From the NCBI GenBank assembly GCA_003516025.1, contig CP023991.1, positions 600,001 through 632,000 of the forward strand: a stretch of 32,000 nucleotides of DNA. Reading direction: 5' to 3'. The DNA comes from Candidatus Saccharimonadota bacterium (GTDB taxonomy: Bacteria > Patescibacteriota > Saccharimonadia > Saccharimonadales > UBA4665). Below are positions 5,113 through 22,492 of this stretch, in pieces. Under the pieces are notes generated by a model, which was not told the DNA's origin, ran no database searches, and saw nothing but the letters and a program-made list of their open reading frames with translations. Positions within the stretch are counted from its first letter, which is position 1; each line of letters begins with the position of its first letter. A program made the position numbers and the translations under genes.

Positions 5113-5120
5113 TAGGATCA

Positions 5121-8419: not shown

Positions 8420-10297
8420 TTATTTTGTTGAGGTAAATTGCCGGCGGCCACGCAGACGGTCAACTACCAGATAGAGTATACCCAGTACACCGATGGCTAT
8501 TGCCGCGACGGAGAGAGCTATATTCTGGCTGGCCTTACTCAGCTTCGCTGTCGGCCCCTTGGGAGTGCTATCAGTGGTTTTAGTGCCCAGGATTTGGCCT
8601 GCCTTATCAGCGACAGCCTGACTGTTAGTCGAGGAAGGAGTATCATTAGTTGTTACTACGCTGGCGGGAACAGACTTGAGTCCCAGTGAGCTGCTCGCAC
8701 CCGAGCCAGTCGGTACAAAGGCGAATACTTTGGCGACTTCGCCTCCCATAAAGTCGCTACCGGCACCCATGCCACCACCAGAAGTGATAGGCGCTATGAC
8801 AGGCGGTTTCACCGTACCGAAGTTGCCCTTCCAATTACCGAAGACATTAATGAACAGTACACCAAACCAGTTGCTTAAACTGAAATTACTTCCTACTACA
8901 TTGGCGATATTGGCACTCGCCAGAGCGTTTCCGGTAGATATGCTACCGATGTCGTCGTTACCGGTCGCTAGGGCATTGCCCGTTTGAGCGGTAGCCGTAA
9001 TGTTATTCGTTATTGTAGCCTTGTCGCTACTGTTCACGTTTGCGGAGGAACTTGCTTGTTGTCCGCCGTTTTCACTCGCCACAACGCCGCCGCCCAGCGC
9101 AGCCGCTGTTGTTCCGGCCGGGGCATCCATTATTAAGCCAACCCAAGACCCCATGACATTCACGAAAACCAGCAGGCTGTTAGCAGCTACAACTTTGCGA
9201 TTTGTCATATTAAGAATGGTCAGGTTGGTCATGCCGTTACCGCTGGCAATGCTGCCGATATTATCGTTGTCCAACACTGTCGCGTTACCGCTGGCAGCGC
9301 TCAGCTGGACATTATTTATGATCTTGGCGTCGCTAGCCGTATTTGCAGTGCTGTCTGTTAACTGACCGGTAGACACAGTGCCATTGCTTTGCAGCAAGGC
9401 GTTAAGCGAATTCTGAGGCAACAGTACATTTCCCTGGTAGTTGCCATAAATATTTATAGTGCCGATAAACGATTGGTTAGCCGCGACTACTGAATTGATC
9501 ATGTTTATGACATTTGCGACAGCCGTAGCATTACCGGTCGTTATACTGCCGATATTATCATTTTCAGTGGCTGTAGCGTTGCCACTGCCAGCCGTTAAGG
9601 TAAGATTGTTGACGATTGAAGCGTTATTATTCAGGGTCACATTCCCATACTGCAAATTGTTACCCGTATTGGAAGCTGACTGTACCATTGCAGACGGATC
9701 AATCAGAAAATCACCGCTGACATCACCTTGAATATCTTTAGTAAAAGTAGCTACACCAGTGCCGTTCAGTGATGTTTGGGATTGAAGCAGATTGATCAGC
9801 GTAGCACTGGAAAGCGCGTCACCAGTGCTGATTGTTCCGATATTATCATTACGAACTACATCGACGTTGCCCGTTTGAGCGTCAGCCGTGACGGTATTAC
9901 TTACGGCTGTTTGATTATTTATCGTAGTATCGCCGCTACTTTGTTGGTCTTGAGACTGCGTCGGTGCTTCTTCATTGGCTTCGCTTATCGGCTGCGTAAC
10001 GGCTTGGTCGGTTTGGCTCGAAGGTTGGCTTATGCTTGCTTCATCGGCTATCTGATCACTTGGCGGTACAGTGGCAGTAGGTTCATCCGTAATGACCGAT
10101 GAAGTGGTCTGCTGTTCAGTAGCCGACTCAGCTGGTGCGACTGGCTCAGCTTCAACTGCGGTGCCAATCGTGCCGGCAGAACCGTCATCGGTAGAATCAG
10201 TCGTATAGGCAAAGGCCGGCGCGGGTGCGATACCTACGAGTAGTGATATAAGCAGGGCAGTGAACCCTTGCTTGATTGACGTTATAAGTTTTTTCAT
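8420..10297 (-). CDS. Large exported repeat protein: signal peptide, acidic S/T/Q/E-rich spacer, four ~95-100-aa repeats, C-terminal TM anchor
   Basis: GGAGGA SD lies 7 nt upstream. Signal peptide MKKLITS...GIAPAPAFA. There are four repeats carrying SGNA-x5-NDNIGSI-x-TGNA. The C-terminus is IALSVAAIAIGVLGILYLVV followed by DRLRGRRQ. No family recognised. Confidence 0.85.
   Translation of the reverse strand: MKKLITSIKQGFTALLISLLVGIAPAPAFAYTTDSTDDGSAGTIGTAVEAEPVAPAESATEQQTTSSVITDEPTATVPPSDQIADEASISQPSSQTDQAVTQPISEANEEAPTQSQDQQSSGDTTINNQTAVSNTVTADAQTGNVDVVRNDNIGTISTGDALSSATLINLLQSQTSLNGTGVATFTKDIQGDVSGDFLIDPSAMVQSASNTGNNLQYGNVTLNNNASIVNNLTLTAGSGNATATENDNIGSITTGNATAVANVINMINSVVAANQSFIGTINIYGNYQGNVLLPQNSLNALLQSNGTVSTGQLTDSTANTASDAKIINNVQLSAASGNATVLDNDNIGSIASGNGMTNLTILNMTNRKVVAANSLLVFVNVMGSWVGLIMDAPAGTTAAALGGGVVASENGGQQASSSANVNSSDKATITNNITATAQTGNALATGNDDIGSISTGNALASANIANVVGSNFSLSNWFGVLFINVFGNWKGNFGTVKPPVIAPITSGGGMGAGSDFMGGEVAKVFAFVPTGSGASSSLGLKSVPASVVTTNDTPSSTNSQAVADKAGQILGTKTTDSTPKGPTAKLSKASQNIALSVAAIAIGVLGILYLVVDRLRGRRQFTSTK
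8828..9925 (-). repeat. Four tandem intragenic repeats (period 288-309 nt) inside the 625-aa protein gene
   Basis: On the plus strand CCGATATTATC recurs at 9255, 9549 and 9837, with a diverged CCGATGTCGTC at 8946. Each encodes the (N)D(N/D)IG core of one repeat. Confidence 0.8.
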
Positions 10298-10347
10298 ACA
10301 GAAATCCTCCGGGAAAGTGGTTGGTAGGAAGGAACAGGTAAGTGGGT

Positions 10348-10373
10348 GAGGAGTGGCGTAGCCGCCACTCCTC
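10348..10373 (-). other. Perfect 11-bp hairpin between the small acidic gene and the large repeat gene (partial terminator or mRNA stabiliser)
   Basis: GAGGAGTGGCG-TAGC-CGCCACTCCTC. On the minus-strand transcript it is not followed by a U-tract. Confidence 0.5.
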
Positions 10374-10397
10374 CAACTTTGCGCTGACTAAAGTCTG

Positions 10398-10988
10398 TTA
10401 GTCGTTGGTTACAGTAACATCGAAGCTCGTGTGACTCATGTTGCTTGCGTCACCAGAGGTTACGTTTTCAACGTCGTCGTTGTCTTCGACCCAGACATTA
10501 CCGCTCTCGGCAGTCTGATGGTTGTTATTTTCAACAGTAACGTCGGTTTCGTTATCTACAGTGGTTTCACTATTCCAACTATTTTCGATGCGGTTGTAAG
10601 AATCGTCATCGGTTTCACTGATGGTGTTTTCACCCCAGCTGCCGGCACCCATACCACCAGCACTGTCGCTCGAAGCAGCAGTGTTAGTTACGGCAACATG
10701 GCCGCTGGTTGTAGAGTCATTCATGGCTGAGCCGGAAGTAGCCGAGCCAAGGTCATCATTGTTTTCAACTTTAACGTCACCCGACTTGGCGTCCTGTGGG
10801 TTATTGTTTTCAACATCGACATCAGTATCGTTGCGTGTTTCGCTCGTCATAGAGCTGTGGTTCTTTACGTAATTGCTTGAATCATCGCCTGAGCCGCTGA
10901 TAGAATCAGCTGATACGGCGCCTGCAAAGCCGGCTACTAATGCGACTGAGGATGCTACAGTTGCTGAGATACGTGTTAATTTGTTCAT
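10398..10988 (-). CDS. Small secreted hyper-acidic Asn/Asp/Ser/Thr-rich protein with an internal tandem duplication
   Basis: The start is moved to ATG 10988, which has AAGGAG 6 nt upstream. Signal peptide MNKLTRISATVASSVALVAGFAGAVSA. There are two copies of ...ETxxDN(D/E)TDVxVENNNxQxAxSGxVxVExNDD...SGxAxN...VxVTN. Confidence 0.8.
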   Translation of the reverse strand: MNKLTRISATVASSVALVAGFAGAVSADSISGSGDDSSNYVKNHSSMTSETRNDTDVDVENNNPQDAKSGDVKVENNDDLGSATSGSAMNDSTTSGHVAVTNTAASSDSAGGMGAGSWGENTISETDDDSYNRIENSWNSETTVDNETDVTVENNNHQTAESGNVWVEDNDDVENVTSGDASNMSHTSFDVTVTND

Positions 10989-11032
10989 AATGAACTCCTT
11001 ACCGTTACTTGGTATTAAGGTTATTAGTACTG

Positions 11033-11084
11033 CTCGGGTGGCCACCCGAGTTGGAAGCGAACTACATTTTTGCTCCCAACTCGG
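11033..11084 (-). other. Two mutually exclusive hairpins in the intergenic spacer upstream of the small acidic gene
   Basis: Palindrome CTCGGGTGG/CCACCCGAG spans 11033-11050. Its right arm (11046-11050) is shared with a 13-bp stem CCGAGTTGGAAGC (11046-11058) / GCTCCCAACTCGG (11072-11084), which has one mismatch. Confidence 0.45.
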
Positions 11085-11113
11085 CCGGTCACCACGGTCT
11101 CAAACATAAACTA

Positions 11114-11665
11114 TCAAGGAACTCTCCGGCCATCCGTCGTGGTCGATGACTGGCTATAGACGTTAGTTTGAACAGAGGAACTTGATGTCGTAGAGCTACC
11201 ACTGCCGCTCGTGCTGGAGTTATTGTGTATAGACACGTCGAGGGAAGTCGTCGCGTCGTTCGACTGATAGGACTGGGACATGGACGAATTGGCGGGTAAT
11301 TCTGTCGTGTCGCCGTTTATCGTCACCGACGCGCCGTCGTCACCGGCAGATACGGACACCGAGTGGTCGGTTTGGGTTAGATTCGTCGAACTATCTGGCA
11401 TATATTCCTCCACGTCCGTCTCGGCTGTTATGGGTTCATTCGGCGGGCTAATGGATATATCAGCAGTTGTCGAAGTATCGGTATCAGTAGTGGCGCTGGA
11501 CGAACTATTTGACTGCAACACCGAAGCTAATGTAATAGAGAGCAGGGCAAGTACAGTAAGGCTGCCTCCAATATACCAACGGGTAACCGTACCAGGCACT
11601 CGGTACACAAGCGTAAAACGCTTTAGGCCGTCATGCAGCAGCTGCTTATCGAATAAACGGTTCAT
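11114..11665 (-). CDS. Signal-anchored (type II) membrane protein with Ser/Thr-rich extracytoplasmic region
   Basis: The preferred start is ATG 11665 (MNRLFDKQ...), and the track start at 11704 is a TTG. One TM helix (WYIGGSLTVLALLSITLASVL) is followed by ~125 aa of S/T/D/N-rich low-complexity sequence. Confidence 0.65.
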   Translation of the reverse strand: MNRLFDKQLLHDGLKRFTLVYRVPGTVTRWYIGGSLTVLALLSITLASVLQSNSSSSATTDTDTSTTADISISPPNEPITAETDVEEYMPDSSTNLTQTDHSVSVSAGDDGASVTINGDTTELPANSSMSQSYQSNDATTSLDVSIHNNSSTSGSGSSTTSSSSVQTNVYSQSSTTTDGRRVP

Positions 11666-11736
11666 AGGCAGGTATCCACCCCTGTGCGATCGGCACTTGG
11701 ACAAATGTCATATTCTGTATAAACTTGTGCGTGCAT
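11662..11736 (-). CDS. Candidate 24-aa upstream micro-ORF translationally coupled to the S/T-rich protein gene
   Basis: AGGAGG (11746-11751) lies 9 nt upstream of ATG 11736. It encodes MHAQVYTEYDICPSADRTGVDTCL. Its TGA overlaps the downstream ATG as ATGA (11662-11665). Confidence 0.3.
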   Translation of the reverse strand: MHAQVYTEYDICPSADRTGVDTCL

Positions 11737-12098: not shown

Positions 12099-12959
12099 AT
12101 GGATAAAATCAAAAAAATAGCCCATTCGCTCGACCGCTTTCAAGGCTCGCACACCATACTGGCATTTCCTGTCGCCGTGATTAAGCGTTACGGCGATGAC
12201 CAGGCGGGCAAACAGGCCGCGTTAGTTACCTATTATGCTTTTTTGTCATTGTTTCCGTTATTACTGGTCTTCATGACAGTACTTAGCCTGGTTATCGTTA
12301 ATAATCCTTCACTCGAAAGCCGTATTATGCGCGAAGTATTCCAGCTGTTCCCGTCACTCGACAATGATTTGCGCAATAATGTCACTTCGCTGCACGCTAG
12401 CGGCCTGGGCCTACTGCTGCAAGCCTTGGTAATTTTTTACGGTGCCCGCGGTCTGGCCAGCATCCTACAGGAAACATTTAATAATTTATGGCACGTTGAT
12501 AAAGACCATCGTCCTGGTTTTTGGGGTGATCACGCCCGGGGATTGGGGATGATGGCCGCCGTAGGTTTCGGCATGATTATTGGAACTGTTACCAGTTACG
12601 GCCTCCATAACATACTGCACCTGGGTGTCTTCGGATCAATTATTATTACCGCCTTCAACGTACTGCTAACATACGGCCTGTTCCTGGCTGTATTTCGTTT
12701 GGGAACTTCGAATCGTATCAGTCTCAAAAGATTGAGCGTCGGCGCCGGCGTGGCCACCATAGGTACTATGGTCGTTCAGCAGTTTGGTGGCTATCTTATG
12801 TCCCAGCATTTACAAAAGCTTGAAGGGTCATACGGCTCATTCGCGCTGGCCCTCGGCATGCTGTTCTGGATTTACCTGCAGGCCCAGATTATTTTGTACG
12901 CCATAGTAGTCACCGTCGTTCGCGCCGAACGGGACTATCCTAAAAAACTGCTGTCCTAG
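12099..12959 (+). CDS. YihY/BrkB-family membrane protein
   Basis: 286 aa. The characteristic N-terminal region is ...AALVTYYAFLSLFPLLLVF..., followed by six predicted TM helices and a C-terminal WIYLQAQIILYA. Confidence 0.85.
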   Translation: MDKIKKIAHSLDRFQGSHTILAFPVAVIKRYGDDQAGKQAALVTYYAFLSLFPLLLVFMTVLSLVIVNNPSLESRIMREVFQLFPSLDNDLRNNVTSLHASGLGLLLQALVIFYGARGLASILQETFNNLWHVDKDHRPGFWGDHARGLGMMAAVGFGMIIGTVTSYGLHNILHLGVFGSIIITAFNVLLTYGLFLAVFRLGTSNRISLKRLSVGAGVATIGTMVVQQFGGYLMSQHLQKLEGSYGSFALALGMLFWIYLQAQIILYAIVVTVVRAERDYPKKLLS

Positions 12960-13376
12960 CTAATGTTCGACTGGCTTGATTTTAGCCGTGCAGTACATGC
13001 ACCGGCTGGCTTTCAGTGGCACTTCACTTAAGCATTCGGGGCACTTCCGGGTGGTCGGGTCAGGGGTGGGTTGCTTCTTGCGGGTGCGCTCCAATAAGTG
13101 ATTGATCGGCTGGACGACCAAAAAGAAAATTACCGCCGCCGTCAGGACAAAAGTTATAAAAACGTTCAAAAAGTCACCGTAACTAAACACAATGCCGTTT
13201 ATATTCAGACTATGCTTAGCCAAATCGGTCTTGCCCTGGATGGCACCGATGAGCGGGCTGAGAAAATCTTTAACAAAGGCATTCACAACCCCGGAAAATG
13301 CCGCGCCGATAACCACCGCGACCGCCAAATCGACAACATTGCCTCGTAAAATAAATTTTTTGAATTCCTGTAACAT
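12960..13376 (-). CDS. mscL: Large-conductance mechanosensitive channel MscL with C-terminal CxxC...CxxC tail
   Basis: From ATG 13376 it reads MLQEFKKFILRGNVVDLAVAVVIGAAF..., the canonical MscL N-terminus and TM1. A second TM helix follows, then KCPECLSEVPLKASRCMYCTAKI. The longer track ORF (to 13508) would overlap the upstream gene. Confidence 0.9.
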   Translation of the reverse strand: MLQEFKKFILRGNVVDLAVAVVIGAAFSGVVNAFVKDFLSPLIGAIQGKTDLAKHSLNINGIVFSYGDFLNVFITFVLTAAVIFFLVVQPINHLLERTRKKQPTPDPTTRKCPECLSEVPLKASRCMYCTAKIKPVEH

Positions 13377-13389
13377 GTAGTCAAGTTTA

Positions 13390-14322
13390 TTACAGGTAGC
13401 GCTTTTCGACAATCCGAAGCGCCACATAACCCGGCAGCAGTGGCAACCAATAGGTGAGACCGCGGTATAAAATGGCAGCCGTAGTCGCCATGGCGAGGGG
13501 GATACCACACGCTACCAACATGCCGGCAATACCAGCCTCAGCGCCTCCAAGCCCGCCAGGCGTCGGCACCAGCGCCGCAACTATGGTACCGCCCGAGATA
13601 GCCAGTAGGGCTGCGGCCCATGAGCCATGAACTGAAAGGGCCTGTAAAACCAGGTACAGGCCGCTGACGTGCAGACTGGTCAGTGCCAGCGAGCTAACCA
13701 AAGCTCCCCCAGTCGCGACTGGCCTGCGAACCAGCAAGTGAAAGTAAGCTTGTAGCTGGCTCTTTATTTTATACAGTCGCATTTTCCGGCCATAACGCCT
13801 GGCAATGATACGCAGGGCAAGGCTGACAACCAGCAGACCTGCCAGTATCAGGCCCAGTTGCTGTGATGAAATGTGTACGCGTATGGAAACATGAGGCGGG
13901 GCAAACATCACGATGCCGGCTACTAATAGAACATTACCTATAAAACCAAGCAGGTTGTTAAGTGTTACGATTGCTGTAGCCTGGGTGAGTGTGTGCCCAT
14001 GACGTTTTAGATAATAAGCGTTTACACCAAGCCCGCCCAGTCCAGCCGGCAGCAGGCGATTTACCAGGCCGCCGGAAATCTGAAGCAGCAGCAGTTGCCT
14101 AAAAACAAGTCTTCTGGCAGCAAGTAAGCGGTACGTAAGGGCGGCGCAGACGTAACTCATTCCAACACAGATTGCTGCCAGTAATACGAGGGACGGCCGG
14201 GCTGTACGAACCGCCTCTACACTATCCGACAAGCCAGTAAAACCTGCGACTATCAGGTACAGTAGCAGGCCCAAAACTACAATTTGTATCAGTCCCCGCA
14301 TACGCAATGAGTGTGGCGCCAT
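13390..14322 (-). CDS. UPF0104 / lysyl-PG-synthase TM-region (MprF flippase-like) membrane protein
   Basis: 310 aa, ~8 TM helices, with the family-typical C-terminal motif VPTPGGLGGAEAG. Confidence 0.75.
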   Translation of the reverse strand: MAPHSLRMRGLIQIVVLGLLLYLIVAGFTGLSDSVEAVRTARPSLVLLAAICVGMSYVCAALTYRLLAARRLVFRQLLLLQISGGLVNRLLPAGLGGLGVNAYYLKRHGHTLTQATAIVTLNNLLGFIGNVLLVAGIVMFAPPHVSIRVHISSQQLGLILAGLLVVSLALRIIARRYGRKMRLYKIKSQLQAYFHLLVRRPVATGGALVSSLALTSLHVSGLYLVLQALSVHGSWAAALLAISGGTIVAALVPTPGGLGGAEAGIAGMLVACGIPLAMATTAAILYRGLTYWLPLLPGYVALRIVEKRYL

Positions 14323-14329
14323 ACCGACC

Positions 14330-14335
14330 AGTATA
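14330..14335 (-). promoter_or_regulatory. -10 box TATACT, 7 nt upstream of ATG 14322 (leaderless-type)
   Basis: The minus strand reads CTAACA-18-TATACT-ggtcggt-ATG. Confidence 0.45.
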
Positions 14336-14376
14336 CGTGCTTATGCTTACGAATGTTAGTCGGGGCTTCTATCTGA

Positions 14377-14382
14377 TATACT
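14377..14382 (+). promoter_or_regulatory. -10 box TATACT for the GT2 gene (SD-led transcript)
   Basis: TATACT is followed by a 24-nt leader containing AAGAGG (14396-14401), 5 nt before ATG 14407. It lies back-to-back with the minus-strand promoter. Confidence 0.4.
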
Positions 14383-14406
14383 GATATGAATTCGTAAGAG
14401 GTTTTT

Positions 14407-15351
14407 ATGAAAGTCGTAGTCCAGATTCCATGTCTCAATGAAGAGGCGACCTTACCGCTAGTACTAGCCAGCATACCGAAAAAAATACCTAACGTAGATG
14501 AAATTGTCGTGGTTATCATCGATGACGGATCGACTGATAAAACTGTCGAGGTCGCCAAGAAACATGGCGTACGGCATTTCGTCCGCCATGCCCGAACCCA
14601 ATATTTAGCCCGGTCATTCCATGACGGAGTCAATTACGCCTTAGAAATCGGTGCTGACATCGTAGTTAATACCGACGGCGATAACCAGTATCCGCAGGAA
14701 AAGATAGCCGAACTGGTACAGCCTATCATCAGCGGCCAGGCAGATATCGTCATCGCGGACCGTCAGACGCAAAAAATCGCTCACTTCTCAGCGACTAAGA
14801 AGTTTTTACAGCGATTTGGAAGTGCCGTCGTCAATAAGGCGGCTGGAACTGATTTACCAGATGCCGTCAGCGGTTTCCGGGCTTATTCGCGGGAATCACT
14901 TTTACGTATTAATACGGTAACACGCTTTAGCTATACTACCGAAACCATCATCCAGGCCGGCCAGAAGCATCTGTCGATTGCCAGCATTCCGATTACCACC
15001 AACGCCAAGACAAGGGAATCACGCCTGTTTAAGTCAGTGCGCCAAATGGTGACAAAACAAGGCGTAACAATCATCCGGGCATTCATTATGTACCGGCCGC
15101 ACATTGTATTCGGTACGCTGGGATACACGCTGCTGGTGCTCGGTCTGGTGCCATTTGTACGCTATTTATACTTCACCATTACTGACCATACCGGACGGGG
15201 TCATTTGCAATCGCTTGTACTGGGTTCAGTATTACTGACAGCCGCATTCATGTGCCTGGTGCTCAACATCATTGCCGATCTTATACGCATTAACCGTATA
15301 CTCATCGAAGATAATCTTGAACATACAAAACGCATTCGCTTTGATAAATAA
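14407..15351 (+). CDS. GT2 polyprenyl-phosphate sugar synthase (GtrB/ArnC/Ppm1-like) with two C-terminal TM helices
   Basis: GT-A signatures are VQIPCLNEE, VVVIIDDGSTDKT and DXD in NTDGDNQY. The C-terminal helices TLGYTLLVLGLVPFV and LVLGSVLLTAAFMCLVLNIIADLI match GtrB-type enzymes. Confidence 0.85.
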   Translation: MKVVVQIPCLNEEATLPLVLASIPKKIPNVDEIVVVIIDDGSTDKTVEVAKKHGVRHFVRHARTQYLARSFHDGVNYALEIGADIVVNTDGDNQYPQEKIAELVQPIISGQADIVIADRQTQKIAHFSATKKFLQRFGSAVVNKAAGTDLPDAVSGFRAYSRESLLRINTVTRFSYTTETIIQAGQKHLSIASIPITTNAKTRESRLFKSVRQMVTKQGVTIIRAFIMYRPHIVFGTLGYTLLVLGLVPFVRYLYFTITDHTGRGHLQSLVLGSVLLTAAFMCLVLNIIADLIRINRILIEDNLEHTKRIRFDK

Positions 15352-16863
15352 TCAGCGTACGGTTATACGGTTTAAAACATCCCTGGTATTCGCGTTCAAA
15401 TTCTGAGCAGGTTCACTTTGCTGCCAAACCCATGTCGTATTACCGCGTACGATCCACGCCATTATGCCACCACCCTGCAAAAACAGGAATACCGTTATTA
15501 CGATGAGCCACGTTTTTAAGTATGAATGCCGTAACATGTTCGCGCCCCAGTTAAATCCCATCGCCAACAGAACAAGCAAAAACGGATACATCGGTATAAG
15601 GTAACGGCCATGGATAGCTACCGCCTCGCCGGTATGCAGGTACATGGAAACATTCTTAGCAAGCAGCACGAACGCGTAGAAAGCGCACGCCAGCAAGAGG
15701 AGGCGAATGGCAGGCTGGCGCCATAAACGCTTCCAGAAAACCACACAAAGCGCCACCCCGCCCAGCGTGATAACCCAGGCAGTGATATTCGCGACCAGCA
15801 GCGGGCTGGCAGCCTGATATGTTACTGTTCCGTCCGGACCGAAGAAACTGCCGATAGTAAACATGGTTTCGTATATCATGCGGTACACCCACACGAACGG
15901 GTAAATTATGATGCCCCATGCGCCGGGACGATCATATATTTCAGCAAAAAGATGGTCCCGGGCCCACGGAGAGTAGGATTCACAGCGTTCTACAGTGAGC
16001 ACTTTGGCACAGTCCGGCTGTAAAGAATGGTACCGCAGCAGGTTGACGCCGTATCGTTCAAGACTAAGACCAGCGCACAATAACACGACGAACAGGCCGG
16101 CAATGAGCAGGCCTCTGCGTGGCCAGGCTGCAACCGGCCACGAACCCGTCGAACGGCGCGCCATGAACGTTTCTATAGCAAGCAGGCCGGCGATAGCAGC
16201 GAACACCGGCAGGGAAGTATATTTACAGACCGCCGCGAGTAACCCCCATATTACAATAAGCAATACGGCGGTTATGTCCAGGCTGTTACGCTGCCGCAGT
16301 GCCTGGATATATCGCACAGTATGCAGAAACAGCAGTCCCGTCAGTAAAAAGATGAGATTGTCATAGTTGATCTGTCCTGCCAGTAAGGGCACAATAGGTA
16401 GGAGCACAAAGAACAGCAGTGCGGCGTGAGCCAGCCGTCTCGACAGTCCTAACGCGTCAAACAGTCTTCGATAGACCAATATGCCGCTGGCGAATATACC
16501 AATATTAATCAGGCGCAGGAATATGACCTGCCCAGCCTCAGAACCGGATAATGACGCGATCAGCCGATAGGGCCAGCTCATAAGGTAATGGTAAAAATAC
16601 GAACCGTCCCGCCAAGCCGGGCCGTACACGTCAGCGCCAGCCGGCTGACTGGTAAAAAACGGTAGCCATTGCTCGGCATGGAGGCGAATCAGACCAAAGT
16701 GGAAGTTCTCATCGAAAGCCTGGGGATAGCGGGCAGTGAGGGCAATCCACAAGCTCTGCACTATGAGCAGCCCAAGAATAATCCAGATAAAATGAGGCGA
16801 GGCGAGCCACCCTGAAACCTTAGCCTGAAGACGAGCGTTGAATGACTGCATATAAGTAACCAT
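15352..16863 (-). CDS. GT-C fold membrane glycosyltransferase (PMT/ArnT-like)
   Basis: ~500 aa with ~12 TM helices. The first extracytoplasmic loop carries AFDENFHFGLI, which resembles the DE motif (FDEVHFG) of PMT/GT39 enzymes. The start is ambiguous (ATG 16863 or 16851). The track start at 17097 is rejected because it would overlap the divergent gene. Confidence 0.7.
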   Translation of the reverse strand: MVTYMQSFNARLQAKVSGWLASPHFIWIILGLLIVQSLWIALTARYPQAFDENFHFGLIRLHAEQWLPFFTSQPAGADVYGPAWRDGSYFYHYLMSWPYRLIASLSGSEAGQVIFLRLINIGIFASGILVYRRLFDALGLSRRLAHAALLFFVLLPIVPLLAGQINYDNLIFLLTGLLFLHTVRYIQALRQRNSLDITAVLLIVIWGLLAAVCKYTSLPVFAAIAGLLAIETFMARRSTGSWPVAAWPRRGLLIAGLFVVLLCAGLSLERYGVNLLRYHSLQPDCAKVLTVERCESYSPWARDHLFAEIYDRPGAWGIIIYPFVWVYRMIYETMFTIGSFFGPDGTVTYQAASPLLVANITAWVITLGGVALCVVFWKRLWRQPAIRLLLLACAFYAFVLLAKNVSMYLHTGEAVAIHGRYLIPMYPFLLVLLAMGFNWGANMLRHSYLKTWLIVITVFLFLQGGGIMAWIVRGNTTWVWQQSEPAQNLNANTRDVLNRITVR

Positions 16864-16880
16864 TATAGCAACCTTAGCGC

Positions 16881-16909
16881 TTACATAAATCACTGAAATA
16901 AAATACAAT
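16881..16909 (+). promoter_or_regulatory. Promoter TTACAT-17 nt-TACAAT, 6 nt upstream of ATG 16916 (leaderless)
   Basis: Both hexamers are near consensus with optimal 17-nt spacing. Only GGCCGC lies between the -10 box and the ATG. Confidence 0.55.
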
Positions 16910-16915
16910 GGCCGC

Positions 16916-17782
16916 ATGAGTAAAAAACAAATCAAGACAGTTCTCTCTATAGCGGTCATATTAATTACCATTGTCGTTTTTGTAATGTATTTCCGTAGCC
17001 ATCCGCATACGTTCAGCGCGCTTAAAAATGTGCCGGTACACACGCTTATCCTACTGTTTATTCTGTACCTTGCCTTTATTGGTACGCTGGCAGGCATTCA
17101 GCAGGCGACGCTGCGACTATGCGGCATTAGCCTGTCTACCCGTGAAAGTGCCTTGGTAATGATGTACTCGTCAATCATTAACTTTTTTGGTCCCCTGCAA
17201 AGCGGTCCGGCTTTTCGGGCGGCATATCTTAAGAGTCGGCATAACGTAAACCTTAAAAAATACGCGCTGGCAACATTACTGTATTACGGCTTATATGCGG
17301 CCATCAGTGGTCTGTTAATTTTATCGTTTATCATCGGCTGGTGGATTATTCTGGGCGCGATTATCGGATTGCTGGCAACACCGTTGGCCCTGCGTATTCC
17401 GCGCTTCCGAGACCTCGACCTTACCGGGTTGCGTCAACTGGCAATAGCGACACTGGCGCAGGCGGCCGTACAGTCACTTATTTATTTTGTTGAGCTTCAC
17501 AGTATCTTACAGCATGTTACGTATATCAAGGCACTGGTTTACACCGGTGTGGCCAATTTCGCGTTATTCGTTTCAGTCACCCCGGGTGCCATTGGTTTCC
17601 GCGAATCTTTCCTGGTGTTTTCACAGAAACTGCATACCATCGGAAATGACACCATCGCGGCGGCCAGCGTAATTGACCGGGGCGTTTACATCGTGATGCT
17701 GCTGGTAATGGCGGCGCTGATTTTCGGGCTGCACGCTAATAAGCTGCTCAAAGTAAAGTCAGCCAAACAAACAGCCGAGTAG
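16916..17782 (+). CDS. Second UPF0104 / MprF-flippase-like membrane protein
   Basis: 288 aa polytopic protein. Family motif VTPGAIGFRESF near the C-terminus. Confidence 0.7.
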   Translation: MSKKQIKTVLSIAVILITIVVFVMYFRSHPHTFSALKNVPVHTLILLFILYLAFIGTLAGIQQATLRLCGISLSTRESALVMMYSSIINFFGPLQSGPAFRAAYLKSRHNVNLKKYALATLLYYGLYAAISGLLILSFIIGWWIILGAIIGLLATPLALRIPRFRDLDLTGLRQLAIATLAQAAVQSLIYFVELHSILQHVTYIKALVYTGVANFALFVSVTPGAIGFRESFLVFSQKLHTIGNDTIAAASVIDRGVYIVMLLVMAALIFGLHANKLLKVKSAKQTAE

Positions 17783-17814
17783 GCCTCTTACAGCATATTT
17801 TCAACATTCCGGCG

Positions 17815-17820
17815 TATACT
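17815..17820 (+). promoter_or_regulatory. -10 box TATACT, 9 nt upstream of the response regulator ATG
   Basis: TATACT-aaagccata-ATG(17830), with no SD. Confidence 0.35.
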
Positions 17821-17829
17821 AAAGCCATA

Positions 17830-18510
17830 ATGCGCATACTGGTTATTGAAGACGAAGTTAAGATCGCCACAGCTATTAAACGTGGTCTCGGCCTTAGTGG
17901 CCACGCCGTTGATATAGTACACGACGCCGATACGGGTTATTCATATGCCAAAGACCCCAGCTACGATGTAATCATTCTGGACCGCATGCTGCCGGGCAGC
18001 ATGGATGGCGTGGCCTTGTGCGCCCGGATACGCCATGAAAGTATCAGTACTCCCGTTCTCATGCTTACTGCCCGCGGCACCATCGGAGACAAAGTAGAGG
18101 GTCTCAACAGCGGCGCCGACGATTACCTCGTAAAGCCGTTTTCATTCGACGAGCTAACCGCCCGCGTCCGCGCTTTACTGCGCCGGCCAAAAGCCACCAC
18201 CGGCACAGTATTGAAGGCCGGTAATCTGGAGCTGGATCCTGTTAATTACAGCATCACTCGTTCAGGCCAGCCCATACAGCTGTCGCATAAGGAATTCCAG
18301 GTTTTGGAATACTTCATGTATCATCCGGGCCAGATTATTACCAAAGACAGACTGATATCGCACATCTGGAATGAAGACGCGGATGTGCTGCCCAATACCG
18401 TTGAGGTATATATAGGTTATCTGCGTAGCAAAGTCGACCGGCCGTTTCCCGATGAAAAGCCGCTCATCCATACCGTTCGAGGTTTTGGTTACCGGCTTGG
18501 AGACAAATAA
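17830..18510 (+). CDS. OmpR/PhoB-family response regulator
   Basis: The receiver domain has the acidic pocket (ILVIEDE), phospho-acceptor Asp (VIILDRMLPG) and LTAR...KPF. The C-terminal winged-helix domain has LSHKEFQVLEYF...TVRGFGYRL. Confidence 0.9.
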   Translation: MRILVIEDEVKIATAIKRGLGLSGHAVDIVHDADTGYSYAKDPSYDVIILDRMLPGSMDGVALCARIRHESISTPVLMLTARGTIGDKVEGLNSGADDYLVKPFSFDELTARVRALLRRPKATTGTVLKAGNLELDPVNYSITRSGQPIQLSHKEFQVLEYFMYHPGQIITKDRLISHIWNEDADVLPNTVEVYIGYLRSKVDRPFPDEKPLIHTVRGFGYRLGDK

Positions 18511-19541
18511 TGGGCGGCATGAGCAGGCCCTTCCGTTCCGCCTTATTCAAGCTAACCGCCGTCTATGTCACCATCGTGATGGCCATTTGCCTCAGTTTCA
18601 GCTTCATCCTGTATCGGTTAGCCGTCAATGAGCTCAATACCGGTTTCCAGAACCAGTACGTCCGCTGGCTTACCGAATATCGCCCCTACGGATTGCGGCA
18701 ACCAAACGACCCCACATCTGAGCTACACGCGCGCACCCGCCATATTTCCGCCCAGTTAGCGTATTTTAACGTGCTGGTGCTGGTAGCAACCACAGGCGCT
18801 TCTTATTTGCTGGCGCGGCGCACACTAAGGCCGATCGAACGGGCCCATAACCAGCAAAAACGGTTTACGGCCGATGTCAGTCACGAACTGCGCACGCCGT
18901 TAACGGCGCTTAAAATGGACACCGAAGTGGCTTTACTGGACAAAAAAGCTACCGCTACAGATTTACGCCAAACCCTGCAGGGCAACCTGCATGAGGCCGA
19001 TCGCATGGAAACGCTTGTAAACAGCCTGCTGCAGCTGACGAGCCTGGAAGCCCACCAGTTGCAAAGCGAGTTCGAAAAGCTGGACATCCAAGATATCGCC
19101 GGCAACGCGCTCAAAGTCGTGGACAAACTAGCCGGGCGGCATGGCATAACATTCGACAACACTTTGCGTAGCGGTTTTGTTATCGGCAACAAGGCAAACC
19201 TGACGCAGCTGATTGTTATACTGCTGGAAAACGCCATCAAGTACAGTCCGGACGGTTCGACCGTCCGCCTGGTTACTTCCAGCACGGCGCAAAACGTCAC
19301 TATCATAGTGGAAGATACCGGCAAGGGTATCCCGCCCGATGCCTTACCGCATGTGTTCGACCGCTTTTACCGGGCGGATAATTCACGCACGGTTCAGCCA
19401 GGCAGCGAGTCGGGCGGCTTCGGCCTGGGTCTGTCATTAGCAAAATTGATTGCCGACGTACACGGCGCGGAAATCGTGCTCACAAGCTCCGTCGGACAGG
19501 GGACGCGGGCACTTGTGCGCTTCCCCTCCAGCGCGAAGTAG
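18510..19541 (+). CDS. Sensor histidine kinase (HisKA + HATPase_c), two TM helices, ~47-aa external loop, no obvious HAMP
   Basis: H-box FTADVSHELRTPL, N-box LLENAIKYSP, G1 box VEDTGKGIP and G2 box GGFGLGLSLA. Its ATG overlaps the RR stop (TAATG). Confidence 0.9.
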   Translation: MGGMSRPFRSALFKLTAVYVTIVMAICLSFSFILYRLAVNELNTGFQNQYVRWLTEYRPYGLRQPNDPTSELHARTRHISAQLAYFNVLVLVATTGASYLLARRTLRPIERAHNQQKRFTADVSHELRTPLTALKMDTEVALLDKKATATDLRQTLQGNLHEADRMETLVNSLLQLTSLEAHQLQSEFEKLDIQDIAGNALKVVDKLAGRHGITFDNTLRSGFVIGNKANLTQLIVILLENAIKYSPDGSTVRLVTSSTAQNVTIIVEDTGKGIPPDALPHVFDRFYRADNSRTVQPGSESGGFGLGLSLAKLIADVHGAEIVLTSSVGQGTRALVRFPSSAK

Positions 19542-19565
19542 AACCCTGTATAAATAACATGCTTA

Positions 19566-19574
19566 TGCTACAAT
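19566..19574 (+). promoter_or_regulatory. Extended -10 TGcTACAAT upstream of cyoA
   Basis: TGCTACAAT lies 12 nt before ATG 19587, implying a very short leader with no SD. Confidence 0.45.
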
Positions 19575-19586
19575 ATTTATACTATT

Positions 19587-20474
19587 ATGGGTACAAAGAC
19601 CAAGATCGCGCTCGCTATATCACCGTTCGTGATTCTTGTTGGCCTACTTGTCGTTCTGGCCCAGGGCCATACTTTTGCGATCCTTGAAACCCAGGGACCT
19701 ATAGCAGCCCAGGAAAAGCGCCTGCTGGCTTTCGCGTTTGGACTCAGCTTGTTCGTTATCGTGCCCGTCTACGTATTGACCGTTTTTATCGCCTGGAAGT
19801 ACCGCGCAGGTAACAAAAAGGCTCACTACAATCCCAATTGGGGACATAGCCGCCAATTAGAAACAATCTGGTGGGGAATTCCGTGTTTTATCATTTTGGT
19901 CTTGTCTGTCATTACTTGGCGCAGCAGCCACAGCCTTGACCCAGCCCGAGCCATTAGCAGCTCGCAGCCAACATTACAGGTGCAGGTTGTAGCATTGCAA
20001 TGGAAATGGCTATTTATATATCCGCAACAAGGTATAGCCACCGTAGACGAGCTGCATATACCGGCTGGCCGGCCGGTGCAGTTCTCCATAACTTCGGACG
20101 CGCCGATGAATTCATTCTGGATTCCACAGCTTGGCGGCCAGATGTACGCTATGAGTGGCATGACGACTACACTGCACCTGCAAGCCGATAAAACCGGAAC
20201 TTATCAGGGAGTCTCAGCTAATATAAGTGGTGAAGGCTTCGCCGACATGCGGTTCACGACCACCGCCAGCAGCGAGGACGACTTTAGCACCTGGGTACAG
20301 CAAACAAGGCAGTCGGCCACCAGGCTGAACAATAGCAGTTATAGGACGCTGGCCGAACCAAGCTCAGACAACGTGGCGATGAGTTTCGCTTCGGTCGAGC
20401 ATAACCTGTATGATACGATAGTAACGAAATATATGTCGGACGAGACTACGGAGACTTCGGCACATGGCCACTAA
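19587..20474 (+). CDS. cyoA: Cytochrome bo3-type quinol oxidase subunit II
   Basis: Collinear with E. coli CyoA ([36 protein letters not shown]). The CuA Cys/His ligands are absent ([12 protein letters not shown] versus E. coli SASYSGPGFSGM), which marks a quinol oxidase rather than a cytochrome c oxidase. There is no lipobox Cys. Confidence 0.9.
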
Positions 20475-20491
20475 GCAGGGGAGAGATTAGT

Positions 20492-22492
20492 ATGTTGGGG
20501 CGGTTAAACTGGGACGCGCTTCCTGATGTGCCGATAACTATCGGCGGGGCCGTCATGCTGGTCGTAATGGGTATTGTGGCTGTTGCTGCCATGACCTACT
20601 TCAAAAAATGGCGCTGGTTATGGACAAACTGGCTCACCAGTCTTGATCCGAAAAAAATCGGTATCATGTACATTATCGTTTCTGTTTTAATGCTGCTGCG
20701 GGGAGCAGCCGATGCTCTCATGCTGCGCGCTCAACAGGCGACCTCAGCCGGCAATTCACACGGAGTGATCAGCGCTGACACTTTTCAGCAGGTATTTTCG
20801 GCTCATGGATCCATTATGATTTTCTTCGTTGCCATGGGCTTTATGTTCGGGCTGATCAACCTGATAGTACCGCTACAGATCGGTTCGCGCGACGTGGCGT
20901 TTCCATTCCTTAACTCAGTCAGTTTCTGGTTATTCGTCGCTGGCATGGTGCTTATAAACGTCTCCTTGGTAATCGGTGAGTTCTCAACGGCCGGCTGGCT
21001 CGCCTATCCGCCGCTCAGCGAGCTGCGCTACAGTCCCGGCGTCGGAGTAGACTACTGGATATGGAGCTTGCAAATTGCCGGCGTCGGAAGTTTGCTGTCG
21101 GGTATTAATTTCCTGGTGACAATACTGAAAATGCGCGCGCCCGGCATGACCCTTATGCGCATGCCGATCTTTTGCTGGAGCGTACTGTGCAGCATGGTAC
21201 TGGTAGCGTTCGCCTTTCCGATCCTGACAGCAACATTACTCATGCTTGGTCTCGACCGTTCGCTCGGCATGCATTTCTTTACGTCCGACTTCGGCGGCAA
21301 TGCCATGATGTACGTCAATCTCATCTGGGCCTGGGGCCACCCGGAAGTGTACATTCTTATATTGCCGGCCTTCGGTATTTTTTCCGAAGTTGTCGCGACA
21401 TTCTCACAAAAGAAACTATTCGGTTATACCTCTATGGTATGGGCGCTAGGTGCCATTACTGTGCTGTCATTTATCGTCTGGCTGCACCACTTCTTTACCA
21501 TGGGCGCCGGTGCCGACGTCAACGCCTTTTTCGGTATCATGACCATGATCATCTCCATTCCGACCGGCGTCAAAGTCTTTAACTGGCTGTTTACGATGTA
21601 CCGGGGACGCATCATTTTTTCAACGCCGATGCTGTGGTTCCTGGGCTTCGTGCTGACGTTTGCCATTGGCGGTATGACCGGCGTCTTGATGAGCGTTCCT
21701 GCCATCGACTTCCAAATGCATAACAGCCTTTTCCTGGTAGCGCATTTCCATAACATGATCATCGGCGGCGTGCTGTTCGGCTACTTCGCCGGCTACATGT
21801 ACTGGTTCCCCAAGATCACCGGTTTCAAGTTGAACGAGCGTCTTGGCAACATCGCTTTCTGGTGCTGGCTTATCGGTTTCTTCTTTGCCTTTATGCCGCT
21901 CTACGTATTAGGTATCATGGGCGCCACCCGCCGTCTCGACCATTATGACGCCAGCCTGGGGTGGCAGGGGCTGTTTATCGTCGCCGGATTGGGCGTGCTG
22001 ATTATCGCCGCCGGCGTAGCCTTCCAATTATTGCAACTGGCAGTCAGTGTCTGGACTCACTTTAAACATCCGCAGCGCAACGCAGACCTCACAGGCGACC
22101 CATGGAATGGCCGTACCCTGGAGTGGGCTACCAGTTCACCGGCCGCTGAATACAACTTCGCGGTTATTCCGACTGTGACCGACCGCGACGCCTGGTGGAA
22201 AATAAAACAAGACCGGCAAACCAAAAAACCAGGCAACCCAATTGTGTATGAAGATATCGCCGTTCCTAAAAATACCGGGGTGGCCCTGTTCGTCGCTGCC
22301 GGCAGCTTTATGGTTGGCTTTGGCATCATCTGGCATATATGGTGGCTGGCACTGGCAGGTCTAGCGGTAGTAATTGCCTCGGTTATTCACCGCTTAAACG
22401 ATGACGATACCGAGCAAGTGATTCCGGCCGCTGAAATCGCCGCCAGCGAAGCCGCGCGGATGTCTCGGCTTAAGCAAAAGGTAGCCGTATGA
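20492..22492 (+). CDS. cyoB: Cytochrome bo3-type quinol oxidase subunit I (haem-copper oxidase catalytic subunit)
   Basis: 666 aa. It has [14 protein letters not shown] (CuB His and cross-linked Tyr), WLHHFFTMG (CuB His pair) and [17 protein letters not shown] (haem ligands). Long stretches are identical to E. coli CyoB as recalled, e.g. [18 protein letters not shown]. Confidence 0.95.

Follow-up and report, generated by a model that had tools for sequence, protein, structure and literature searches.

A conserved gene trio of Saccharibacteria encoding a putative three-component glycosylation module

The design in which a GT-A glycosyltransferase, a flippase and a GT-C glycosyltransferase act together is well established (PMC8035078). 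In the Gram-positive systems CsbB/GtcA/YfhO, GtlA/GtcA/GtlB, GacI/J/K/L and CsdAB-CflA, a membrane GT-A enzyme makes a C55-P-sugar and is accompanied by a flippase and a GT-C, and the acceptor in such multi-component systems is an extracytoplasmic polymer (PMC8035078). In archaea, Makarova, Galperin and Koonin (2015) described a neighbourhood of a GT2, a PMT/STT3-like GT-C and an UPF0104 protein, and predicted computationally that the UPF0104 protein is the flippase (PMC5898192). Archaeal AglD is a fusion of GT2 and UPF0104 (PMC5898192; PplT preprint), COG0392 already bears the name "Predicted membrane flippase AglD2/YbhN", and UPF0104 proteins are the designated flippases in the HexSDF and GpgSDF glycolipid operons. 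That is, the three-component design is known, and the flippase idea was previously published for archaea. Here we describe a locus with the same three protein classes in a window of 32,000 nucleotides of a Candidatus Saccharimonadota genome (contig CP023991.1, positions 600,001 to 632,000).

Gene arrangement and conservation of the locus

The locus contains four genes in two divergent pairs, and an ORF check of the window confirmed the coordinates and strands that had been predicted for them. Gene A (13390-14322, minus strand, 310 aa) encodes an UPF0104/PF03706 protein of the YbhN/PplT-like type, and gene B (14407-15351, plus strand, 314 aa) a membrane-anchored GT2 of GT-A fold, a predicted polyprenyl-phosphate hexose synthase; 84 bp (14323-14406) lie between them. 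Gene C (15352-16863, minus strand, 503 aa) encodes a glycosyltransferase of predicted GT-C fold from an uncatalogued family restricted to Saccharibacteria, and gene D (16916-17782, plus strand, 288 aa) a stand-alone UPF0104/PF03706 membrane protein whose model has the fold of the MprF flippase domain; these two are separated by 52 bp (16864-16915). The stop codon of B directly adjoins that of C (15351/15352). The maximal ORF of C is 15352-17097, but its start was placed at 16863, with no overlap with D, because P0001, a database protein with 100% identity, is 503 aa long. One promoter-like match was found in the C/D spacer (16880-16909, plus strand), but the scan overall did not exceed what shuffled sequence gave. 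The window ORFs include no recognized GtrA or Wzx family protein, in agreement with the original prediction.

We then compared 80 related Saccharibacteria loci, all from one order-level clade; the evaluable number varies with each count, and the counts are uncorrected for shared ancestry. Of the four genes, B shows the highest conservation (54-88% identity in 71/80 loci). A B-type GT2 directly adjoins the GT-C in 56 of 73 loci and lies within 3 kb in 64, and D stands in divergent orientation next to the GT-C in 54 of 78 loci and no more than 3.5 kb away in 61. The commonest layout among the relatives is a short divergent C/D spacer of about 50-300 bp. Among the 72 loci evaluable for both GT2 and D, 56 have both, 8 have GT2 only, none has D only and 8 have neither (Fisher p 1e-6, uncorrected for phylogeny); the two are gained and lost at the locus as a pair. 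The grouping of D, C and B persists through three gene orders with differing surroundings, one of which is a same-strand C-B-D run with overlapping B and D (L017), and reverse look-ups from two D homologues returned the same arrangement. Of 78 loci, 17 lack an UPF0104 gene in the 10 kb upstream, and at the 8 loci with the GT2-GT-C pair alone no substitute flippase is visible; either D can therefore be dispensed with, or a gene elsewhere can take its place. Unrelated neighbours, the cyo operon, MscL and VanY among them, are likewise found repeatedly in the relatives.

Gene A behaves differently from D. Only the 7 closest relatives (L001-L007) have it next to B; it lies 5-9 kb away in 22 other loci and is missing from the flanks elsewhere. 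The expected co-occurrence of GT2, GT-C and UPF0104 thus held for D and not for A. The conserved unit is the D-C-B trio, probably a three-component glycosylation module.

Properties of the four proteins

B matched the GT2 family PF00535 (Pfam, E 2e-21). It has a DXD motif (D90-G91-D92) and hydropathy places two TM helices near its C-terminus, at around residues 232-259 and 266-300. Its top family match in NCBIfam was the archaeal Dol-P-hexose synthase AglJ (4e-29, across residues 3-294), followed by Dol-P-hexose transferase, PpgS, PgfS and ArnC, and the nearest solved structures by PDB sequence comparison were P. furiosus DPMS (5mlz, 8.6e-11) and ArnC. Families, motif and hydropathy bear out the earlier view of B as a GT2 of the polyprenyl-phosphate-sugar type, and at the level of sequence the likeness to polyprenyl-P-sugar synthases extends along the whole of B.

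The AFDENFHFG motif of C, at residues 49-57 of its 503, sits directly after TM1 in a confident AF2 model (pLDDT 94.7, pTM 0.94), that is, in the first outer loop, where it had been predicted. Of this motif, A49, F50, D51, E52, H55 and G57 were invariant in an alignment of 41 homologues; N166-Y167-D168-N169, C285, C294 and G419-R420-Y421 are invariant as well. The catalytic DE motif of PMTs lies at the position matching D51-E52, likewise after TM1 (PMC12705809). Every significant Foldseek match of C was a GT-C enzyme (Pmt4, ArnT, ALG9, AglB, ALG12, EmbC and STT3), so that we confidently assign the modelled protein to the GT-C fold. The structural comparison favoured no single subfamily. That is, Pmt4 was the best match (E 2e-4) and ArnT the second, but Pmt4, ArnT, ALG9, AglB and EmbC were nearly equidistant, with TM scores of 0.4-0.5, all below 0.5.

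The C protein of the window had no match in Pfam, NCBIfam or PDB sequences. Its homologues matched DUF2142, PMT, GT22 and PMT_2 weakly and in a scattered manner (Pfam), with 10 of 41 leaning to DUF2142, which occurs in polysaccharide loci, and 6 of 41 to PMT; two were marginally over the PMT threshold (29.2 and 25.0 bits vs 22.7). The C family is small and bounded, its profile finding 1523 of 1.84e9 representative proteins, and the large PMT families are therefore out of its reach. The DE motif was the sole PMT-specific feature found, and the label "PMT-like" did not survive. We rejected the identification of C as a PMT, since C fails the PMT model, finds no PMT structure by sequence and in its fold stands as near to ArnT or ALG9 as to Pmt4.

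The two UPF0104 proteins had been taken for paralogues, and possible flippases, flanking the enzymes. Both do belong to PF03706, A with E 3.7e-37 (LPG_synthase_TM) and D with E 2.4e-13 (Pfam), and A also matched the "flippase-like" TIGR00374 (78.8 bits vs a cutoff of 43.2). However, pairwise BLASTP of A and D gave no significant similarity (E 0.94), and family membership alone is common to them; we therefore rejected A as a close paralogue of D. A is probably an independent lipid-translocase-like protein, a lineage-specific neighbour outside the conserved module. In D, the residues E77, N89-FFGPLQSGP-98, R101, K106, T222-PGAIGFRE-230 and D254-R255 are invariant (alignment A2). The six top Foldseek matches of its AF2 model (pLDDT 87.3) were all MprF structures (TM 0.61-0.66), and the next match scored 0.19; as modelled, D has the fold of the MprF flippase domain. 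The aminoacyl-PG synthase domain of MprF is missing from both A and D.

Predicted action of the trio and the alternatives

The adjacency of B and C, the family of B and the fold of C agree with the proposed synthase-transferase pair of the lipid-linked type, and it is very likely that B and C are a coupled pair of donor synthase and transferase. D probably belongs to this module functionally. For the whole trio, we lean toward a three-component transmembrane glycosylation, which most likely adds a single sugar to something on the cell surface. By homology, B, anchored by its two C-terminal helices at the cytoplasmic face, would transfer one sugar from a nucleotide sugar to polyprenyl phosphate. 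D may then move the polyprenyl-P-sugar to the outer leaflet in place of the GtrA- or Wzx-type proteins of characterised systems; its fold, its co-conservation and the archaeal fusions point to such a step. Finally, C would pass the sugar on to an acceptor outside the cytoplasm; D51/E52 of the invariant loop are the putative catalytic acid/base site.

Concerning the acceptor, three Ser/Thr-rich proteins with signal or anchor segments, recognized by composition and hydrophobic segments, are indeed encoded nearby on the minus strand (8420-10297, 10398-11045 and 11114-11704), as had been noted. Their S+T contents are 23%, 26% and 34%, against 10-19% in nine other tabulated window proteins (10-15% without the CyoA-like one), and they had no Pfam match. 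As acceptors they fared poorly: only the three closest loci (L001, L003 and L004) have homologues of them beside the module, and Ser/Thr-rich ORFs near the GT-C were not enriched across the 80 loci. Modification of protein Ser/Thr is unlikely. In relatives, a gene for an LCP-family ligase adjoins the GT2 at 19 of 57 loci, with 26 having it within 3.2 kb, a UDP-sugar dehydrogenase gene lies in the cluster or next to it in 5 loci and about 2-4 kb from the GT2 in two more (7/80), and lectin-CHAP wall hydrolases and BacA/UppP neighbour the cluster in other loci. Our best guess is therefore a cell-wall-associated glycopolymer or other envelope glycoconjugate rather than the Ser/Thr-rich neighbours, and we tentatively favour a wall polymer or other non-protein acceptor. 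This guess is drawn from the relatives, because no LCP or UDP-sugar dehydrogenase gene was found in this window.

Downstream of D, Pfam identified an OmpR-type response regulator (17830-18510, plus strand) and a histidine kinase (18510-19541, plus strand). The three genes lie on one strand with gaps of at most 47 nt, and the run occurs in 19 of 68 evaluable loci and also in L082, while D occurs without the two in 36. It is possible that they regulate the module.

The original prediction as a whole was protein O-glycosylation of the actinobacterial Ppm1/Pmt type, with a PMT-like C, both A and D as flippases, and the Ser/Thr-rich proteins (8420-11704) as targets. The invariant FDE-x-x-H-x-G of loop 1, the first rank of Pmt4, the two homologues marginally over the PMT threshold, and the export signals and composition of the neighbours agree with this model, and streptococcal GT2/GT-C pairs do glycosylate Ser/Thr-rich disordered regions (PMC12041528). 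However, C of the window matches no PMT model or structure by sequence, its family profile stops short of the large PMT families, ArnT, ALG9, AglB and EmbC are structurally as near as Pmt4, and more homologues lean to DUF2142 than to PMT. Together with the restricted occurrence of the Ser/Thr-rich proteins and the lack of co-conservation of A, these results make the full model improbable. A stress-regulated modification of a membrane lipid or lipid-anchored polymer against cationic antimicrobials, switched by a two-component system in the style of ArnC/ArnT or HexRK-HexSDF, seems equally hard to credit. The recurrent run of D with the regulator and kinase, the control of HexSDF by HexRK, the nearness of ArnC to B and of ArnT to C, and the UDP-sugar dehydrogenase in the cluster of a subclade (cf. 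Ugd feeding the Arn pathway) speak for it. But the regulator and kinase are missing in most loci, the window has no ArnA/B/D-type sugar-modifying gene or deacetylase, and Saccharibacteria, to our knowledge, have no lipid A.

The role of D itself deserves separate consideration. D may be part of the module and yet bring free polyprenyl phosphate back to the inner leaflet once the sugar has been transferred, translocate a diacyl glycolipid or phospholipid, or serve as a structural partner of C, in which case an unlinked protein or the GT-C itself would flip the polyprenyl-P-sugar; Pmt4, a GT-C, has been suggested as a possible Dol-P-Man flippase (PMC12705809). The substrates shown or proposed for the MprF fold (MprF, HexF and GpgF) are diacyl lipids, not polyprenyl phosphates. 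Moreover, in Haloferax the Dol-P-mannose produced by AglD, itself a fusion of GT2 and UPF0104, does not get to the outside without AglR (PMC3871713), so that an UPF0104 domain may not suffice as a flippase, and eight loci have the enzyme pair without D. Against this, D is tightly co-conserved with the GT2 and never stands at the locus without it, GT2 and UPF0104 are fused in archaea, and no glycolipid-type glycosyltransferase or deacetylase stands alongside, unlike in HexSDF/GpgSDF. We consider a non-flippase role rather doubtful, and D as a polyprenyl-P-sugar flippase a tentative candidate. Finally, the adjacency of D (and A) might be functionally meaningless synteny inherited in small compact genomes, as the single clade, the recurrence of the unrelated neighbours and the lineage-specific position of A would allow. 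This is very improbable, because the trio survives three gene orders and strand changes amid differing surroundings, the GT2 and D disappear from the locus as a pair, and in archaea, too, these three families occur as neighbours or fusions.

Comparison with known systems

With the Gram-positive systems, the trio has in common the membrane GT-A, the flippase (candidate) and the GT-C, but their flippases are of the GtrA or Wzx type, not the MprF type, and their GT-Cs belong to YfhO and other families, none of which C matches by sequence. PMT/GT39 with Ppm1, streptococcal GtrB/PgtC2 and PgfS/PgfM1 share the GT-C fold, the DE motif in loop 1 and a donor, polyprenyl-P-sugar, that a GT2 supplies; Ser/Thr-rich candidate acceptors also occur near this module. 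PgtC2 is a YfhO-family enzyme (PMC12041528). C differs from PMTs in failing their model, in having no MIR domain, and in being no nearer to Pmt4 than to ArnT/ALG9. HexSDF (C. difficile) and GpgSDF (P. aeruginosa) likewise combine a stand-alone UPF0104/MprF-fold protein, to which a flippase role is assigned, with a glycosyltransferase, and HexRK is a two-component system nearby, as here. In those operons, however, the glycosyltransferase acts on diacyl lipids and a deacetylase is present instead of a GT-C, whereas this locus has a GT2 of the polyprenyl-phosphate type and a GT-C. MprF differs by its synthase domain.

In Haloferax volcanii AglD/AglR/AglS, a GT2 likewise loads dolichyl phosphate with one hexose, the lipid-linked sugar crosses the membrane and a membrane transferase attaches the hexose outside, and AglD has an UPF0104 domain, a likeness to the family of D. 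There, however, the domain is fused to the GT2, the separate AglR (the proposed Dol-P-mannose flippase or its assistant) is required, and the acceptor is a protein-bound glycan of S-layer N-glycosylation; no AglR-like gene was seen in this window. There is also a close likeness to the archaeal neighbourhood, in which arCOG00897 (AglD-like), arCOG00563 ("PMT/STT3-like") and arCOG00899 bring the same three protein classes together with UPF0104 read as the flippase; the top family match of B, AglJ, is archaeal as well. The co-conservation and fold of D agree with the proposal of a non-canonical flippase; the idea itself was already published in 2015 (PMC5898192). The present locus differs in being bacterial and in encoding three separate proteins, and C is likened to arCOG00563 by class. 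We therefore regard the trio as a bacterial case of the predicted GT2/GT-C/UPF0104 neighbourhood, in which the GT-C belongs to an uncatalogued family.

Gene arrangement and conservation of the cluster

The window belongs to a Saccharibacteria (TM7) genome. The four genes of the cluster are arranged as two divergent pairs, and all open reading frames (ORFs) are present as the original prediction described them. We call the encoded proteins A to D. The gene of A, a UPF0104 protein of 310 aa (13390-14322, minus strand), is separated by a spacer of 84 bp from that of B, a GT2 protein of 314 aa (14407-15351, plus strand). The gene of C, the GT-C protein (15352-16863, minus strand), is separated by 52 bp from that of D, the other UPF0104 protein (16916-17782, plus strand, 288 aa). 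B and C are convergent, and their stop codons abut. The maximal ORF of C extends over 15352-17097 on the minus strand (581 aa) and would overlap D by 182 nt. Because a database protein that is 100% identical to C has 503 aa, and because the alignment of homologues agrees with this length, we placed the start of C at 16863 (MVTYMQSF...), where no overlap with D occurs. When 12900-19700 was scanned for promoters and terminators, the counts stayed inside the shuffled expectation.

The surroundings of the cluster are ordinary housekeeping and envelope genes. Upstream in the window are genes for CysS, an AI-2E transporter, two GT4 glycosyltransferases, a hydrolase, VanY and small proteins, together with those for three S/T-rich exported proteins, BrkB/YihY and MscL. 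The two GT4 genes (GT-B fold; 2831-5121, minus strand) are in tandem 8 kb upstream of the cluster and adjoin genes for the alpha/beta hydrolase and the VanY D,D-carboxypeptidase; in two related Saccharibacteria loci, L017 and L020, the cluster is flanked by GT4 genes as well. The 165-aa product of the ORF at 7100-7597 (plus strand) carries a lipoprotein-like signal (LALLALQGC) and matches nothing in Pfam; the small membrane ORFs at 7708-7980 and 8006-8359 are likewise unassigned. One S/T/N-rich exported protein of 625 aa (8420-10297, minus strand) has a signal peptide, a C-terminal membrane anchor and an internal repeat whose marker, NDNIG(T/S)I(S/T/A)(T/S)G(D/N)(A/G), recurs about every 97 aa, at residues 150, 246 and 344. 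Pfam gave no match to this protein, and its homologues occur in the closest relatives only. Downstream are genes for an OmpR-type regulator and a kinase, an operon for a cytochrome bo3-type oxidase and heme O synthase, and other genes. The operon (19587-24298) encodes a complete quinol oxidase (CyoA-D-like) with a heme O synthase of the UbiA family, and thus gives a Saccharibacterium part of an aerobic respiratory chain. It adjoins the module and is syntenic with it in many relatives (such as L081 and L082).

We scanned one genome per GTDB species and found relatives of C in 268 stretches. For 80 loci we collected the sequence together with flanks of at most 10 kb; the number of evaluable loci differs by question. 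Of 73 evaluable loci, 56 had a GT2 gene no more than 300 nt downstream of the GT-C gene, and in 64 the distance was at most 3 kb. A D-type UPF0104 gene was divergently adjacent upstream of the GT-C gene in 54 of 78 loci, and lay within 3.5 kb in 61. Among the 72 loci evaluable on both sides, 56 had both GT2 and D, 8 had GT2 only, none had D only and 8 had neither (Fisher p of 1e-6 for co-presence, with the loci treated as independent of phylogeny). All three genes were neighbours in those 56 loci, in three gene orders: D<- ->C B<-, which is the arrangement of the window; D<- ->C ->B; and a same-strand run of C, B and D in which B and D overlap (L017). Reverse look-ups from two D homologues led to the same GT2/GT-C/D arrangement.

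In contrast, A adjoined the GT2 gene only in the 7 closest relatives. In 22 loci it lay 5-9 kb away in a different syntenic block, and elsewhere it was absent from the flanks. Since co-conservation holds for D and fails for A, we regard the module as a trio of D, C and B rather than a quartet. The original interpretation is supported in part: it was right in proposing a module for lipid-linked glycosylation to which a UPF0104 protein belongs, and it overstated the second 'flippase'.

The two genes that follow D on its strand (17830-19541) encode a response regulator of the OmpR type and a histidine kinase; they begin after a 47-nt gap and overlap each other. We rejected this two-component system as a conserved part of the module, because the pair followed D in only 19 of 68 loci. 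The pair was also found beside the GT-C gene in two loci without D.

The GT2 and GT-C proteins

B was correctly recognized as a GtrB/Ppm1-type GT2 protein. It matches PF00535 (GT2; E of 2e-21), and its best NCBIfam matches are polyprenyl-phosphate sugar synthases, with archaeal AglJ matching over the whole length (4e-29) and Dol-P-hexose transferase, PpgS, PgfS and ArnC among the others. The nearest solved structures are the Pyrococcus Dol-P-Man synthase and ArnC. B also carries the DXD motif D90-G-D92 and two C-terminal hydrophobic (TM) helices, and is accordingly a membrane-linked GT-A (GT2) protein akin to polyprenyl-phosphate sugar synthases.

C was matched by no model in the Pfam and NCBIfam scans, and a search of all PDB chains, by the single sequence or by a 41-sequence profile, found nothing. 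We therefore classified C by its fold. The AlphaFold model built on the 41-sequence alignment was confident (pLDDT 94.7, pTM 0.94), and all significant Foldseek matches of this model were GT-C enzymes, namely Pmt4, ArnT, ALG9, AglB, ALG12, EmbC, STT3 and Pmt1/2. The GT-C fold of C is thus established, whereas the TM-scores, which were 0.31-0.48 throughout, do not fix its subfamily. Pmt4 ranked first (E of 2e-4, TM 0.46), and the values for ArnT (0.41), ALG9 (0.48), AglB (0.41) and EmbC (0.40) were equivalent. That is, the modelled fold does not discriminate among PMT, ArnT, ALG and OST enzymes.

The AFDENFHFG loop motif claimed for C is real. A49, F50, D51, E52, H55 and G57 are invariant in the 41 sequences, and D51-E52 directly follows the first TM helix (residues 25-43 of the model). 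This is the position of the catalytic DE motif of PMTs, which lies in the loop between TM1 and TM2 (PMC12705809). Further invariant positions are N166-Y-D-N169, C285/C294 and G419-R-Y421. The PMT-like affinity drawn from this motif was nevertheless unsupported. The PMT model PF02366 did not match C of the window even at E<=1, and ArnT, ALG9, AglB and EmbC are equivalent to Pmt4 in structural similarity. Weak Pfam matches at E<=1 among the 41 homologues were to DUF2142 (10/41), PMT (6), GT22 (2) and PMT_2 (1); when 9 homologues were re-scanned, 2 were marginally over the PMT cut-off and others passed DUF2142 or GT22. Pfam gave no match in C to MIR, the luminal domain of eukaryotic PMTs, and the model is almost all helical apart from a short hairpin at 336-352. 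Bacterial Pmts likewise lack MIR, so that this absence is weak evidence.

When 1.84 billion representative proteins were searched exhaustively with the profile of C, 1523 matched at E<=1e-3, of which 763 reached E<=1e-30, and the best 150 of the 1523 all belonged to the same family. By this search, the family is small and sharply bounded and remains separate from the PMT and ArnT families, which are very large. Its members come essentially all from MAGs of Saccharibacteria/Saccharimonadales. This delimits an uncatalogued GT-C family with about 1,500 representatives. It probably shapes the cell surface of Saccharibacteria, which is important when these epibionts attach to their hosts.

The UPF0104 protein D and its proposed role in translocation

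Both UPF0104 proteins passed PF03706 (cutoff 33.4 bits; A 128.9, D 50.6), and A alone passed TIGR00374. They had been viewed as a paralogous pair, but pairwise BLASTP revealed no recognisable similarity (E of 0.94), and we rejected a recent duplication. The model of D (pLDDT 87.3) had MprF structures as its top six Foldseek matches, with TMq of 0.61-0.66, and the next match fell to 0.19. Accordingly, D adopts the fold of the MprF flippase domain. The aminoacyl-phosphatidylglycerol synthase domain of MprF is absent from both A (310 aa) and D (288 aa), in which only PF03706 was found, and the bifunctional-MprF model NF033480 gave 37.6 for A and 19.4 for D against a cutoff of 600. As had been predicted, no GtrA- or Wzx-family gene was present among the window ORFs scanned, and a UPF0104 protein occupies the linked position.

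We propose that B would link one sugar to polyprenyl phosphate on the cytoplasmic side of the membrane, that D may carry the lipid-linked sugar across the membrane, and that C would transfer the sugar outside by using the D51/E52 loop. The coupling of B and C is the best-supported step, because all GT-C enzymes use, to our knowledge, lipid-phosphate-linked donors and because the two genes are almost inseparable. Co-conservation gives good support to D as a member of the module. A function of D as a sugar-lipid flippase is suggested by the fold, by archaeal GT2-UPF0104 fusions such as AglD and by the analogous assignment of UPF0104 proteins in the HexSDF/GpgSDF systems.

Several points count against this function. 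This fold is known, or proposed, to act on diacyl lipids, and 8 loci keep B and C without D. In 7 inspected loci of this kind, no substitute flippase (GtrA, Wzx or MurJ-like) was consistently present; the genes found instead encode Ricin-lectin/CHAP, MFS, BacA, malic enzyme and LCP proteins. Moreover, in Haloferax the crossing of Dol-P-mannose made by AglD involves AglR (PMC3871713). D might instead recycle free polyprenyl phosphate, move another lipid, or be a structural partner of C. A more far-reaching reading, to which we give clearly less than even chances, is that D is a dedicated MprF-fold flippase for polyprenyl-phosphate monosaccharides which, with the Saccharibacteria-specific GT-C family, would provide a minimal surface-glycosylation pathway in these ultra-small epibiotic bacteria.

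The membrane crossing of polyprenyl-phosphate monosaccharides is still poorly defined. GtrA-type proteins have been given a flippase role mostly by genetics, and we know of no reconstitution of the flipping step of three-component glycosylation systems; a true polyprenyl-phosphate-sugar flippase would therefore be valuable. The eukaryotic Dol-P-Man flippase has been called 'long sought after' (PMC12705809). If this reading of D is true, D would be the first MprF-fold flippase whose demonstrated substrate is an isoprenoid-linked sugar and not a diacyl lipid, and the translocation step would become directly testable, since MprF structures exist.

The acceptor and the relation to known systems

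The S/T-rich exported proteins encoded nearby had been suggested as acceptors, and this suggestion was unsupported. Three neighbouring proteins are indeed S/T-rich (23-34%) and exported or anchored, but their homologues occur in the three closest loci only. In the 80 loci, S/T-rich ORFs made up 1% of the ORFs within 2.5 kb of the GT-C gene versus 2-4% further out; they were present in only 19 loci and, if anything, were depleted near the GT-C gene. Pilin-like ORFs occurred in 2 of the 80 loci. We therefore rejected S/T-rich or pilin-like acceptor genes as companions of the module.

The genes that do recur near the module in relatives are those of envelope polysaccharides; they are hints only, because none of them is present in the window. 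Of 57 loci, 19 carried a gene of the LCP family (LytR_cpsA_psr; about 490-520 aa) divergently beside the GT2 gene, and 26 carried one no more than 3.2 kb away (L010, L013, L019, L021, L027, L038, L052, L081 and others; for example, L081:1745-3205), which suggests a link to a wall-attached glycopolymer. A UDP-glucose/GDP-mannose dehydrogenase gene was inside or beside the cluster on the same strand in five loci of a subclade (L017:8627-9979, L020:11574-12935, L022:4540-5895, L042:11553-12914, L037:10755-12056) and nearby in two more, a hint that the sugar transferred in this subclade may be a uronic acid. Furthermore, a Ricin-type lectin and CHAP (peptidoglycan hydrolase) protein was encoded near the GT-C gene in 4 of the 7 inspected loci without D. 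It was directly upstream on the GT-C strand in three (L045:4401-5453, L053:8893-9945, L080:8709-9782), and in L073 (6761-7852) an MFS transporter gene separated it from the GT-C gene. In L051, also without D, the upstream neighbour of the GT-C gene was BacA/UppP, undecaprenyl-pyrophosphate phosphatase. We incline to a wall-associated glycopolymer or another glycoconjugate as the acceptor rather than the adjacent proteins, possibly with a uronic acid in some lineages, and this is the weakest part of our explanation.

The concept itself is not new. In archaea, UPF0104 genes (arCOG00899) are in conserved neighbourhoods with AglD-like GT2 genes and with a GT-C 'distantly related to the PMT/STT3 family', and COG0392 proteins were concluded to be flippases of glycosylation pathways (Makarova, Galperin and Koonin 2015, PMC5898192). 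The idea of UPF0104 proteins as glycosylation flippases is thus already in the literature, and COG0392 is now named as a flippase. We found no publication on a GT-C glycosylation module of Saccharibacteria/Patescibacteria. New here are the bacterial (Saccharibacteria) instance, the quantitative co-conservation and a bounded GT-C family that has no database model. The compact and strongly co-conserved trio of GT2, MprF-fold and GT-C proteins, in genomes of about 1 Mb, offers a clean natural test case for the archaeal prediction of 2015.

The archaeal arCOG00897/00563/00899 neighbourhood likewise unites GT2, GT-C and UPF0104 genes, C and arCOG00563 being likened by class and gene context only. 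The HexSDF/GpgSDF systems have a glycosyltransferase, a deacetylase and a UPF0104 flippase without a GT-C, whereas in the window the GT-C is present and a deacetylase was not found. With three- or multi-component transmembrane glycosylation systems (reviewed in PMC8035078), the module shares the common design of a linked GT2 and polytopic GT-C, whose roles here are predicted. It differs from the three-component systems in that an MprF-type protein sits where flippases of the GtrA or Wzx type are usually located.
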